Assembly (NCBI RefSeq): GCF_001447785.1
Contig: NW_015164211.1
Span: forward strand, 62,001 to 126,000
Source: Gekko japonicus
Lineage: Eukaryota
Direction of reading: 5' to 3'
Length of the DNA stretch: 64,000 nucleotides
Every line of letters starts with the position of its first letter. Within the stretch, counting starts at the first letter, position 1. The notes under the pieces were generated by a model, which saw nothing but the letters and a program-made list of their open reading frames with translations, ran no database searches and was not told where the DNA came from. Positions 18,359 to 62,220 of this stretch are shown here, in pieces. Position numbers and translations under genes: made by a program.

Positions 18359-18585
18359 CTCCGTCACAACTAGTGTAACATCTAACATACCGCATAATGG
18401 CCCCTAAGCAGACTCAAGCTTTGCCATGTCCCTTGGGGGGTAAATTTAGGTGAGCAATATGTATTTGTATTACACCTTAGAGGATTCATGTTATTTAGCA
18501 AGATACCAGTAGTTTTTATAACAACTCTGTAAGATAGTTCATTATCATCCTGAAATTCCAGGGGTGAAGTGGAAATCTGTGTGTG

Positions 18586-18678
18586 AAGATCAAATTTTGA
18601 GTCCAGTGGCACCTTTAAGACCAACAAAAGTTTATTCAAGGTATGAGCTTCCGTGTGCACGCACACTTCCTCAGATAA
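18586..18678 (-). mobile_element. Penelope-derived short element with hammerhead-like motif
   Basis: Minus strand TATCTGAGGAAGTGTGCGTGCACACGGAAGCTCATAC, followed by the AATAAA-containing tail shared with 49570-49678 and 61955-62036. Confidence 0.65.
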
Positions 18679-48241: not shown

Positions 48242-48314
48242 ATGCAGCCCGCGCTCTTAGGGCGATCTTTTCTGCGACTTGGCTCGCGAAACAGCCGCTT
48301 GCTCCGTCACCATG
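48242..48314 (+). CDS. NDUFAF7: NDUFAF7 exon 1 (mitochondrial presequence)
   Basis: MQPALLGRSFLRLGSRNSRLLRHH, R/L/S-rich with no acidic residues; donor GTAACA, phase 1 fits exon 2. Confidence 0.78.
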
Positions 48315-48731
48315 GTAACAGCGAGGTTGGAAGGGCTCGCCCCTGCTGTGTTTGCCTGCCTTCTGTGGTTTCAAAGGGGCGGGGAGAAATTGGGTCCAGG
48401 GTCCTGTTAGAGTGCCATGTAAATAAGGGGGGGGAGTGCCTTTCTGAACATGTGCAGACTGCCGCATACAACTATCGCCCTTTGGGATGGGGGTCACGAT
48501 TTCCAGGTAGCTCTCAATAGATTGATATGTAGATACGTAGACAGTCTCAGAGATTCTTGGGGATTCGCGGCAGTTTGCTCAACACCCCCCCCCCCCAATG
48601 TTCTAAACTCCGTTTCAAAATTGCTCTTTTGAAAAGTGGCCAGGGCGCCTGTGGAGAGGTACACATAATCTGATCCTGTGGTTGGCTTACTCGGAATCAA
48701 ACCTGATGTGCTGCACATTTGCATAGGACTG

Positions 48732-49019
48732 TGTTATGTAAGGGACTAGAACATTCCAGGACTGTTTCTACCAGAGACTGGCTGAGCTTGGAGCTCTAGA
48801 ACAAAAGCCCACCAGGACTCTGGAGGTGGCCAGTGGGGAAGTAACGGTTCTGATAATGGCCTATCCTTGGTAGTTGTTTGGGAAGTGCATGCTGTTTAAC
48901 AGGGCTGTCGCCCTGGCAGTTTGTCTTCTGTCTTCTGTTTGTTCCTGCCGACTCACTAATAAAGCAGAGCTGAACACTATGCTTGGGGTCAGACCATCCA
49001 TGGAACCCAGTATTTAACA
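48732..49019 (+). mobile_element. Solo LTR (288 bp) in NDUFAF7 intron 1
   Basis: TGTTA...TAACA ends, perfect 5-bp TSD GACTG, AATAAA at 48958. Confidence 0.88.
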
Positions 49020-49569
49020 GACTGTGTATTCCAAGACTTTCTATGCAGCTTCGAGTTTAGTTTTGCTATCGCTACTTGCTGCTGCACAGGGCTGCAGCCT
49101 ATTTGTGTAACATATGAGTAACAGAGTAACATATTTGGAATAGAGACTGTAATGTAATGAATAGTAGAATGTAATGTAATTCGGAATGCTAGATTGGAAT
49201 GTATTTCTCTGGTCTGGGATAGAGGAGATATACACTGCACAGCCAATCACCCCACCTGAAAGAAAAGGATGTGTGTGAAGTTACCTCTATGCTTGAGAGG
49301 AGACAGATGAAGCATAACAACAGGTTCTCAGTTAATTACTCTCAGCATTCCACAATTAAGAAAGGTAGAACTGCCCATCCGATTTTGATATATTTATTGC
49401 CTTCACTATGTTATCCCCTTGAATTAAACCCAAACAAATGGTGACCATGTAAAGTAAGCTTGTTATTCCAGTTTGGTCTTTGAATCTGTAAAACACCGTT
49501 TATTATGTTTATGCTAATTTGCTGCTCACCCTCTACCTACATGTATGGACCAGTAACTTCCATTTCAAC

Positions 49570-49607
49570 GTATCTGAAGAAGTGTGTGTGCACATGAAAG
49601 CTTATAC
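49570..49607 (+). ncRNA. Minimal type I hammerhead ribozyme-like motif (Penelope-derived)
   Basis: GUAU-CUGAAGA-A-GUGUG(ugug)CACAU-GAAA-GC-UU-AUAC: conserved core boxes, stem I, stem II and an AGCU palindrome in place of stem III. Confidence 0.6.
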
Positions 49608-49723
49608 CATGAATAAAACTATGGACTCAAACTTTGTTCTGCTGCTTCAGGCCAACACAGCTACCCACCAGAATCTATAGAGTAAGATGTTTTATAGCAA
49701 TTACTGTTTCTTTGTGACAAAAT

Positions 49724-49825
49724 GTTTGTTGTTCAGTCGCACAGTCAAATCCGACTCTTTGTGACCCCATGAACCACATCATGCCAGGCCCTCCTGTCTT
49801 CTGCCATCCTCCGGAGTTTGCTTAA
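49724..49825 (-). mobile_element. BovB/RTE 3' stub
   Basis: Reverse complement of the 55395-55495 BovB end; 12-bp TSD TTGTGACAAAAT. Confidence 0.9.
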
Positions 49826-50333
49826 TTGTGACAAAATACCAACCCTCTAAGATTACCCACCTATCAGATATGGCCAGGAATATGGGGGAACAATTGTTGG
49901 ACTTGACTAAAAATATCCTGGAGGATGTTTCTGCTCACCAGAGACAGGGCTGGCATAGATTCTCAGCTAAACATGCAAAAAAAGGAGTTTGGAGACCCAG
50001 AACACAATAGTCTTGGAGAGGAGCAAGAGACAAAATGATAACACAACTATATGGCCTTGTGTAGATTAGAAGCCATTCTAACCTATGTTGATAGATAGGC
50101 CCAGGTGCAGAAAAGTTTGAGAATGGCAAGAATGTCCAGCCTCACAGAAATGAGGATATAGTTCAAAGATGGGTTGTATTGGTTGTTGGTCTGAAGTAGA
50201 ACAGCTAGATTCGAGTCCAATAACACCTTAGAGAACAAGGTTTTGGTGCTTCCATGCTGTCTACTGTGATATATATCTTTACTCAGATGACTCACCAGCT
50301 TAGAAGTATCATGGATATTATGTTCTTACACAG

Positions 50334-50497
50334 GTGGTTCAGCTACATGGAGATGCCGATGCTTTAGCTCAGAAAATAAAGTAGAGGAAAACAGCCCAGT
50401 GACACCAATGCTGAAACACCTTATGATGAAAATAAAGTCAACTGGCCCCATTACAGTTGCTGAATACATGCGGGAAGTCCTAACCAATCCTGTGAAG
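50334..50497 (+). CDS. NDUFAF7: NDUFAF7 exon 2
   Basis: ...TPMLKHLMMKIKSTGPITVAEYMREVLTNPVK; 164 nt. Confidence 0.95.
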
Positions 50498-51489
50498 GTA
50501 GAAATGGTGATACCATTATACTTGTATTACACATACTGGCTTGCAGACTTGCACCAGAGGAAAGTAACTTCTCTGCCCCCCACACTTCAGTCCCCTCCCC
50601 TGACACCATGGTTCTTTGAGGCACTGGCCCTGAAGAGGGGGAATATGCAGCAGGAGGTGGGAAATCAACAAAAATCACCCTCCCTTCCTTTGCAAACAGA
50701 AAAGCTGTTCTGGAAGGAATTGCTGCTGCTGCACCAACACAAAATAGCACCATAGGATTGTTGTTTGGAATTAGAGGCTCCGGCTTGTCTTATACCTCAG
50801 TTACAAATATTTTTAATTGTAACAAGCATATTGAACTTGTTCACATCCTAAATTGTAACCTGCTTTTCTGTCAGCATTTTTAATTATTCCTGCATGTTCT
50901 TCTCTTTGGAGCAAACTGCACATTACACAGCAAATGTGTAATAGTATCCTGATGGGGTTTTTTCAACTAAAAGTAACTATAGGAGACTGCCTGTTTGAGT
51001 GGAAAGGGAACAGTCATTCACACATGCACTGCCATTGTGCTCAAACTGATACCCTCACATGGTTCTTCTTCTTTTAAAAAAGAAATCTGGAGTCTGTTGC
51101 ATATATCTAACATTTAATGCTAAAATTGACCTTTTAGTTCTATTGGTCTTCATTTGAAGGACCATTTTTTTCTTCCTCCAATTGTAGTCACATGCCACAT
51201 TTCTGATACAAAAACCATATGGAACATGAGGCAGGCTGAAGTCTTCTGCCTTAGCTGGCAGATTTTGGATTTGATGGATGATTCTTACAAATTTGGTTAC
51301 AAAATTATAAAGAAATTAATTTATCAAGTAGAGAATATAAACTGGATTATACGAGGTTAATTTAAACTACTGTTCAATTACTGTTCACTTACTGTAGAAG
51401 TAAAGATGTGCAGCCATTGTCTTAACTCTTGGGCACACAGCTCCTCTGTCCCCTGTTGTTGTTGTTGTTGTTGTTGTTTCTTCTTCTTC

Positions 51490-53913: not shown

Positions 53914-54162
53914 TAGGACATCAAGTACTGTGATTTGTATTGTGTTTTTAAAAACCTGAAGCTGACTTTCCCAGGATTCTCTATATGCCACCAGCATAAA
54001 GTAGTGTGACGCAGCACAACTGTACTCTTGTGGACTTTTAGCTGTAGGTAGTCTTTCTAAAAATCTCAGATTTTCAGTGCTTCTTAGGTTCCCAAGCATC
54101 TTCCGTTTTATGCTTATTTGCTGGCAAGATATTTGCTTATTTGCAGATGTGTACTCCCACTG

Positions 54163-55495
54163 TGAAGTTAAATGGGCCTTAGAAAGCATTACTAACAACA
54201 AAGCTAGTGGAGGTGATGGTATCCCAGCTGAGCTATTCAAAGTCTTAAAAGATGATGCTGTTAAAGTGCTGCACTCAATTTGCCAGCAAATTTGGAAAAC
54301 GCAACAGTGGCCACAGGATTGGAAAAGGTCAGTATACATTCCAATCCCAAAGAAGGGCAATGCCAAAGAATGTTCAAACTATCACACAATTGCACTCATA
54401 TCACACGCTAGCAAGGTCATGCTCAAGATCCTACAAGCTAGGCTTCAACAGTACGTGGATAGAGAACTACCAGAAGTACAAGCTGGGTTCCGAAGAGGTA
54501 GAGGAACTAGAGATCAAATTGCCAACATTCACTGGATTATGGAGAAAGCAAGAGAGTACCAGAAAAACATCTACTTCTGCTTCATTGACTATGCTAAAGC
54601 TTTTGACTGTGTGGATCACAACAAACTATGGCAGGTCCTTAAAGAGATGGGAGTACCAGACCACCTCACATGTCTCTTGAGAAACCTGTATAAGGGCCAA
54701 GAAGCGACAGTTAGAACCGGATATGGAACAACTGATTGGTTCAGCATAGGAAAAGGAGTACGACAAGGATGTATATTGTCACCTTGCTTATTTAATATAT
54801 ATGCAGAGTACATCATGCAAAATCATCCTGGATGAATCACAAGCGGGAATCAAGATTGCTGGGGAAAAGATCAACAACCTCAGATATGCAGACGATACCA
54901 CTCTAATGGCAGAAAGTGAAGAAGACCTAAAGATGACTGCAGCCATGAAATTAAAAGACGCCTGCTCCTTGGGAGGAAAGCGATGGCGAACCTAAACAGC
55001 ATGATAAAAAGTAGAGACATCACCCTGCCAACAAAAGTCCGCATGGTCAAAGCAATGGTATTCCCAGTAGTCATGTATGGCTGTGAGAGTTGGACTATAA
55101 GGAAGGCCGAGCGCCGAAGAATAGATTCTTTTGAACTATGGTGCTGGAGGAGACTCTTGAGAGTCCCTTGGACTGCAAGAAGAACAAATCAGTCAATCCT
55201 CAAAGAAATCAACCCTGACTGTTCCCTGGAAGGCCAGATAATGAAACTGAAGCTCAAATACTTTGGCCACCAAATGAGAAGGGAGCACTCACTGGAGAAG
55301 ACCCTGATGCTGGGAAAGATTGAAGGTCAAAGAAGATGGGGACGGCAAAGGATGAGATGGTTAGACAGTGTCATAGATGCAACGAACATGAAATTGAGCA
55401 AGCGTCAGAGGACAGCAGAAGACAGAAGGGCCTGGCGTGATCTGGTCCATGGGGTCACGAAGAGTCAGACTCGACTGTGCGACTGAACAACAACA
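54163..55495 (+). mobile_element. 5'-truncated BovB (RTE) LINE
   Basis: RT motifs QAGFR, FIDYAKAFD, GVRQGCILSP, LRYADD; (CAA)n tail; 10-bp TSD ACTCCCACTG; frameshift near 54820 and internal deletion near 54930. Confidence 0.97.
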
Positions 55496-60920: not shown

Positions 60921-61140
60921 CTCATGTGTTTAAGACCAAAAGCATTTTATTCCAGGTATGTGTGTGAGAGAGAGAGTCTCCTGTGTTTAAGACCAAAAAC
61001 ATTATATTCCAGGTATGTTTGTGTGTGAGAGAGCGAGAGCGAGAGAGACTCCTATGTTTAAGGCCAAAAACATTTTATTCCAGGTCTGTGTGTGAGAGAG
61101 AGAATCCTGTCTTTAAGACCAAAAACATTTATTCTAGGTA
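60921..61140. repeat. Four-copy tandem array derived from the Penelope-type tail
   Basis: Unit CTCCTGTGTTTAAGACCAAAAACATTTTATTCCAGGTA separated by (GT)n(GA)n tracts. Confidence 0.85.
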
Positions 61141-61772
61141 TAAGCTTTTGTGGGCAAGCACACTTCTTCTTCGGAGAGGGAGGGAGGGAAACAGCCAGAA
61201 GGGGGAAGTCCCATGGTACTTGGAGAGATCCCTCTTTCCATTTCTAACAGATGGGGGAAGAACCTAACAGCACAGCTTGCATTCCTTATTAGTGAAAGGG
61301 AGCAANNNNNNNNNNNNNNNNNNNNNNNNNNNNNNNNNNNNNNNNNNNNNNNNNNNNNNNNNNNNNNNNNNNNNNNNNNNNNNNNNNNNNNNNNNNNNNN
61401 NNNNNNNNNNNNNNNNNNNNNNNNNNNNNNNNNNNNNNNNNNNNNNNNNNNNNNNNNNNNNNNNNNNNNNNNNNNNNNNNNNNNNNNNNNNNNNNNNNNN
61501 NNNNNNNNNNNNNNNNNNNNNNNNNNNNNNNNNNNNNNNNNNNNNNNNNNNNNNNNNNNNNNNNNNNNNNNNNNNNNNNNNNNNNNNNNNNNNNNNNNNN
61601 NNNNNNNNNNNNNNNNNNNNNNNNNNNNNNNNNNNNNNNNNNNNNNNNNNNNNNNNNNNNNNNNNNNNNNNNNNNNNNNNNNNNNNNNNNNNNNNNNNNN
61701 NNNNNNNNNNNNNNNNNNNNNNNNNNNNNNNNNNNNNNNNNNNNNNNNNNNNNNNNNNNNNNNNNNNNNNNN

Positions 61773-62220
61773 AGGAGTTTGCATTGTCTTGAGCTTCATT
61801 ATCCGTTGCAATTCAGTAGTCCCCCTTTCTAATCTCCCTTTGAAATTCCTTTGTAAGAGAACTGCTACTCTTAGGTCAGCAACTGAATGCCCTGGAAGGT
61901 TAAAATGTTCCCCCACTGGTTTTTGAATGTTGTGGTTTCTAATAGTAGTAGTAGTAGTCCAGTAGCACCTTTAAAGACTAACAACATTGCGGTAGGGTAT
62001 GCGCTTTTGTGAGTCACTGCTCACTTCTTCAGACTTATTTATTCTTTGCATCCTCCTGGACTGAATTCTCCTGTATCAAATTGAGACCTAGGATTTCCTG
62101 TCTCATTACCAATGCTGATATCTCCACGCCTCTGTATATCACACCAATGCTGATATCTTCACCCCTCTGCATATCACACCTAATCCAATCAAGCCTGCTA
62201 TTGCCATTCGGCATCTGAAA
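61773..62220 (-). mobile_element. Penelope-like (Poseidon-type) remnant: GIY-YIG C-terminus plus terminal repeat
   Basis: VGEHFNLPGHSVADLRVAVLLQRNFKGRLER..ELQRIMKL; adjacent decayed hammerhead-like motif at 61997-62036. Confidence 0.8.

Follow-up and report, generated by a model that had tools for sequence, protein, structure and literature searches.

Minimal type I hammerhead ribozymes have been described in Neptune and other Penelope-like elements (PLEs), including those of turtle and snakes, where they occur in thousands per genome, mostly in single truncated copies; in the assays reported, cleavage was absent from the monomer and low in dimers (Cervera and De la Pena 2014, PMC4209133). 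The vertebrate PLE clades are given as Neptune and Poseidon in a preprint on Xenopus (10.64898/2026.07.22.740005), and a CX2-5CxxC linker between the reverse transcriptase (RT) and the endonuclease (EN) is described as a mark of Neptune and Nematis (PMC8557442). In the Anolis Poseidon element PAc, the ribozyme cleaves only with the protein of the element, is dispensable for insertion and is not marked by RNA-seq ends at its site (Frangieh et al. 2024, PMC11167929). Type I hammerheads related to PLE pseudo-LTRs are also carried by the non-LTR retrozymes, which are defined by tandem ribozyme-bearing units; 42-44% of the frog copies of these lie in introns, which suggests that intronic placement is common (10.64898/2026.07.22.740005). 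The intronic RECK, CTCL and DTNB hammerheads of amniotes are canonical and deeply conserved (PMC6155905).

The motif considered here lies at 49570..49607 on the + strand of the window, the whole stretch of 64,000 nucleotides of Gekko japonicus DNA that was analysed, and sequence reading and folding point to a minimal type I hammerhead without a real helix III. Stem I is read from 49570-49573 (5' strand) and 49604-49607 (3' strand), both on the + strand, as is everything between them: the intact core box C3-U4-G5-A6-N7-G8-A9 (49574-49580, with C3 = 49574 and A9 = 49580), an unpaired A (49581) that separates A9 from 10.1, as is usual in the minimal hammerheads of PLEs (PMC4209133), a stem-loop II of 5 bp and a 4-nt loop (strands 49582-86 and 49591-95, whole 49582..49595; G10.1 = 49582, U11.1 = 49595), G12-A13-A14-A15.1 (49596-49599, with G12 = 49596 and A15.1 = 49599), the palindromic AGCU (49599-49602, U16.1 = 49602), whose pairing is possible only between two molecules, and a U at N17 (49603), with the predicted cut at 49603/49604. 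The conserved boxes CUGANGA, GAAA and UH are all present. Each part, the cleavage position included, is found where the earlier note had read it, and the G-U that it saw instead of G-C at the core-proximal pair of stem II is the wobble G10.1-U11.1.

The anatomy is that of the minimal hammerheads of metazoan PLEs in PMC4209133, namely type I, with a helix I of 4 bp, an unpaired base between 9 and 10.1, a palindrome at 15.2-16.2, no helix III, location in a pseudo-LTR and occurrence as a single truncated copy; the window copy differs in having G10.1-U11.1 where they have a conserved G-C, and in its helix II of 5 bp with a 4-nt loop. The gecko family itself was not found in the parts of PMC4209133 considered here. 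The helix I of about 6 bp and the closable helix III of canonical hammerheads are absent, and the monomer cannot close helix III over a loop of two bases. The motif shares with the RECK, CTCL and DTNB hammerheads of PMC6155905 the type I fold and the intronic position, and differs in being minimal and in lying inside a recognisable, decaying, multi-copy repeat. With the non-LTR retrozymes of the Xenopus preprint it shares the type I fold and the relation to PLE pseudo-LTRs; a retrozyme has by definition two or more units in tandem, each bearing a ribozyme, whereas the window holds a single, truncated PLE end on the + strand.

The fold predicted for the 38-mer on its own has both stem I and stem II, at -5.6 kcal/mol, and shuffles fold equally well (z -0.21); the core pattern has one match in the window against 0.05 expected, a number reached by 5 of 100 shuffles. 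Rfam gave nothing at the gathering score over the window and, at E<=10 over 48500-50700, no hammerhead and one weak unrelated match (E 2.7). The genome-wide count is much more telling. Across the genome, three exact 35-base patterns that are identical except at positions 11.1/12 gave 418 matches with CG (G-C), 509 with TG (G-U) and 746 with CA (G12A), 1673 in total, against 0 for the reversed patterns used as controls, which is the decisive argument for homology and against chance. The hammerhead motif in the window is confirmed as real. Three quarters (75%) of the 1673 exact matches are decayed at the 11.1/12 CpG.

The motif lies near the 3' end of an insertion of about 555 bp (49124..49678, + strand) which, from its homology to other copies, is a 5'-truncated Penelope-like element, likely of Neptune type, reduced to the pseudo-LTR and devoid of coding sequence; its ends are approximate, with the 5' edge at 49124-49135, and no convincing target-site duplication was found at its edges. 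A search with the 161 bases around the motif returned 2699 candidates in the genome, the 40 scored being 76-94% identical, and the upstream part alone returned 3454, with 82-87% identity among the best 40 scored; the 5' ends vary among the sibling copies, and the window copy has a deletion of 18-21 bases near 49620 relative to them. Downstream of the cut site, the tail of the element continues for about 75 bases past the cut (49608..49678, + strand, by homology to siblings), so that the RNA template of the insertion was presumably uncut at the ribozyme. In a profile search the copy is single on the + strand, not tandem, and no second + strand copy appeared in 48.2-64 kb or in the next 10 kb; one other + strand fragment in the window, near 12.2 kb and outside the gene, is not above noise (E 0.28). 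Remnants of the same or of related PLE ends, all on the - strand, occur at 18568-18677, 50184-50244, about 60929-61169 and 61950-62033; those at 18.6 kb and 61-62 kb have broken cores, the 50.2-kb piece is tail only, and the three within NDUFAF7 (50184-50244, about 60.9-61.2 kb and 61950-62033) are antisense.

Longer sibling copies continue upstream directly into decayed linker/endonuclease coding sequence, which gives the repeat the location of a pseudo-LTR. A CX4CxxC linker, of the CX2-5CxxC form, is present in 5/5 aligned sibling copies; RVT_1 was matched at E 5.9e-12 in one sibling locus (L237), upstream of the linker frame, and GIY-YIG in 3/5 sibling proteins at E 0.001-0.018, below the cut-off. 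The order of an RT followed by a C-terminal GIY-YIG is therefore seen in sibling copies, with GIY-YIG below the cut-off, and not in the window copy. Pfam gave nothing for four short decayed PLE fragments and the exon 2 piece, and matched the longer fragments. No intact element was seen among the 150 coding candidates scored out of 7462, whose open frames reach 332 aa at most. The homology span, together with the RT, GIY-YIG and linker of the siblings, identifies the window copy as the pseudo-LTR end of a 5'-truncated PLE, and the assignment of the motif to the minimal type I hammerheads of PLEs in the earlier note is borne out by the repeat and by the RT/GIY-YIG-like coding sequence of its siblings. 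The parent element was likely of the Neptune clade, judging from a linker mark that is common to Nematis. The gecko family resembles PAc of Anolis (PMC11167929) in being a lizard PLE hammerhead with genomic copies that run past the cut site, an uncut RNA as template and no RNA-seq ends at the cut site, and differs from it in clade, PAc being of Penelope/Poseidon and the gecko family having the linker of Neptune/Nematis (PMC8557442). Two sibling loci on the same strand, 2.5 kb apart (L068/L069), were considered as a full element with two pseudo-LTRs and rejected as a local duplication with no ORF between them. At another locus (L091, G000:C10578:338500-345500), a 2.5-kb local duplication has inverted PLE ends with an N run between, and may be an assembly duplicate.

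The insertion is hosted by intron 1 of NDUFAF7 (48315..50333, + strand, GT..AG, 2019 bases), between coding exon 1 (48242..48314, +, predicted from the ATG to the GT donor) and exon 2 (50334..50497, +), both of which are predicted and thinly covered by RNA reads. The family of the gene comes from downstream exons, two of which match PF02636 (NDUFAF7 methyltransferase family), and short motifs that we take to be those of NDUFAF7 occur out to 63.7 kb. No read across the junction of exons 1 and 2 was found among the matches listed (15 of 30 joints), and the assignment of intron 1 therefore comes from sequence and coverage; read in this way, it supports the position given to the motif by the earlier note, in sense orientation within intron 1 of NDUFAF7. 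The - strand neighbour, presumably CEBPZ (47991, -; its CBF match is below the cut-off), is head-to-head with NDUFAF7 (48242, +), with starts about 250 bases apart, likely at a bidirectional promoter. Within another part of NDUFAF7, an intron holds decayed LINE reverse-transcriptase frames (54005-55486, +), which we assume to be RTE/BovB-like.

The decay of the family was followed in a sample chosen independently of the core, with 139 loci found via the endonuclease region and 29 via the upstream DNA, and with the ribozyme placed via the downstream tail; of 162 matches, 116 had a full-length ribozyme stretch, and 46 were left out because of gaps or fewer than 24/38 matches. The core is kept in 37/116 siblings; column shuffles give 35.4, and 713 of 2000 reach the observed number, so intact cores are not in excess. 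In 15/116 the motif matches the window copy in intactness, 8 of these 15 with G-C, and G12 is changed in 57/116. The majority of the family has C at 11.1 (80/116), so that G10.1-C11.1 is the pair of the family and the window copy is decayed at it. A tree of 36 pseudo-LTRs has the CG, TG and CA states dispersed over its branches, with 17 changes as compared with 16.8 after shuffling; this, with the 509 G-U copies, suggests that the wobble is ordinary CpG decay after insertion. On the same tree the end branch of the window copy is 0.07 (median 0.077), and the copy is 90.4% identical to the column majority (median 89.4%); it has diverged as much as its siblings. The notion of a special copy is not supported, given at least 1673 close copies, the frequency of G-U among them and the siblings that are equally intact. 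Across copies, non-CpG core sites are changed in 41/928 (4.4%) against 218/2538 (8.6%) of the non-core sites, and at A/T sites only in 4.2% against 7.1% (p=0.005), a difference that speaks against wholly neutral decay and probably reflects selection in the source elements.

For a double hammerhead to be active, three 4-bp helices must be intermolecular, namely the two of stem I and that of AGCU. Nearest-neighbour energies, which ignore the tertiary contacts of the core, Mg2+ and proteins, give this active dimer -6.5 kcal/mol for the window copy; two monomers come to -11.2 and a duplex through stem II, which is non-catalytic, to -19.9, so that the active dimer is 4.7 and 13.4 kcal/mol worse, respectively. 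Three natural G-C copies come out at about -11 for the active dimer, about -14 for monomers and -27 to -31 for the duplex, a gain of about 4.5 kcal/mol in the active dimer which still leaves it disfavoured. By prediction, two monomers are thus more stable than the active dimer in trans. The pair probability of stems I and II is 0.02-0.05 with flanks of 30 or 100 bases, and of about 0.45 with flanks of 300 bases. The weakening of activity that the earlier note expected from the G-U pair would follow from the conservation of the pair in PMC4209133; no measured rate for G10.1-U11.1 was found in the literature.

Three RNA runs of the species, of which 3-12% was read, gave 655, 69 and 310 aligned reads, with no pile-up of read ends at any place; this is a weak test, because only that fraction was read, because 59-93% of the reads run into other loci and because ordinary RNA-seq misses ribozyme ends. 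The unique sequence of the intron is barely covered in these runs. Transcripts of the family are present from both strands, so that partners in trans exist in principle.

The reading favoured here, with a probability of about 0.85, is that of a minimal hammerhead in the pseudo-LTR of a 5'-truncated PLE, in sense orientation in NDUFAF7 intron 1, which decays neutrally as an inert passenger. In the source elements, the ribozyme would have worked on tandem transcripts, two copies forming helix III via AGCU, probably with help from the protein of the element; after insertion, the methylated CpG at 11.1/12 would have deaminated to TG, and the copy would now be transcribed along with the rest of the NDUFAF7 intron. 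With no partner in cis, no usable helix III and probably no helper protein, the intron would be spliced out uncut, and the window copy most likely does not cleave the NDUFAF7 pre-mRNA. Against an inert passenger counts the fact that all core nucleotides are intact in the window copy, as they are in a minority of its siblings (37/116), as do the lower rate of change at non-CpG core sites, the return of stems I and II to a probability of about 0.45 when the flanks are 300 bases long, and the sibling transcripts from both strands.

An unlikely alternative is a weak, unselected cleavage of a few nascent NDUFAF7 transcripts, through pairing in trans with sibling transcripts or with the aid of a Neptune protein or a host chaperone. 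The intact core, hundreds of compatible partner copies and the family transcripts on both strands would allow it, and in the published systems dimers cleave weakly in vitro (PMC4209133) and a protein activates a lizard ribozyme (PMC11167929); however, the active dimer is disfavoured by the predicted 4.7 and 13.4 kcal/mol, the copy has the G-U wobble at 10.1-11.1, its triplet is CUU and the most efficient triplets are reported to be AUC and GUC (PMC4832220), the intron of 2 kb suggests a short lifetime, and neither a full-length ORF among the 150 scored of 7462 candidates nor a pile-up of ends was seen. The cleavage in trans with another copy put forward in the earlier note is accordingly weakened by the predicted energies and by the lack of a same-strand partner in the gene.

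A bolder extension, which we regard as improbable, is that the window copy and hundreds of equally intact intronic siblings are latent ribozymes, activated in trans by sibling transcripts or a Neptune protein and cutting host pre-mRNAs at fixed sites, with the excess of G12A as the trace of purging; if so, host pre-mRNAs such as that of NDUFAF7 would be cut whenever the element family is expressed. G12A is a substitution used to inactivate hammerheads (PMC13481778), and it does exceed C11.1U in the family (746 against 509, p 2e-11). At a control CpG in the tail the bias is the opposite, with 367 TG and 180 CA, and six other CpGs of the pseudo-LTR lean to one side or the other (20:6, 7:26, 24:4, 14:10, 4:16 and 11:10), so selection against active ribozymes is unsupported as the cause. 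Editing of deaminase type was rejected as well, since other GA sites have no surplus of G-to-A changes (5/116 and 4/79 against 8-12/116 at GT/GC).

Co-option of the motif as a regulator of NDUFAF7, or of the promoter region head-to-head with CEBPZ, in the manner of the RECK or DTNB intronic hammerheads, is very improbable: the sense orientation, the first intron and the intact core fit it, as does the existence of conserved intronic hammerheads in amniotes (PMC6155905), but the RECK-type motifs described there are canonical, with tertiary contacts, and conserved across amniotes, while the window copy is minimal, hit by CpG decay at the conserved 10.1-11.1 pair, diverged like its siblings and matched in intactness by 15/116 of them, and a literature search for NDUFAF7 with ribozyme gave nothing related. 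Hardly any weight is left for a chance match, which an isolated fold no better than shuffles and the absence of an Rfam match might suggest and which the family matches against empty controls refute, or for a unit of a tandem non-LTR retrozyme, whose monomers are dispersed in frogs (10.64898/2026.07.22.740005) but which is at odds with longer copies that run into endonuclease coding sequence, a single, non-tandem copy and 5' ends that vary among copies instead of being fixed.

Under the inert-passenger reading, the NDUFAF7 copy is one more case of a described motif, and its intronic placement is expected for so abundant a repeat; locus-specific cleavage, if true, would mean that a family of retroelements can affect host pre-mRNAs in a manner not seen before. 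Of greater use than the single locus is the family, which offers C3-G8 and U3-A8 subfamilies and a natural series of G-C, G-U and G12A variants in hundreds, a ready panel for the question whether PLE hammerheads cleave in vivo, which PMC4209133 and PMC11167929, in the parts considered, leave open. The U3-A8 copies form a sister subfamily with a compensatory core change and C17 (26/116 copies, all 26 with C17) and 406 exact 35-base matches genome-wide (for example L102, L116, L185 and L186); the change was probably one event, and the subfamily probably reflects selection in source elements. U3-A8 covariation is reported in Schistosoma (PMC4209133), and no report beyond Schistosoma was found in the literature search. 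Five copies (L219, L154, L177, L111 and L188), all G12A, form a supported clade (99/95), a hint that a source element may have gone on spreading although its ribozyme was dead. In the version most frequent in the family, stem-loop II (window 49582-49595) is a perfect 14-base palindrome, so that two such copies are predicted to pair via stem II, at about -31 kcal/mol, and not as an active dimer.
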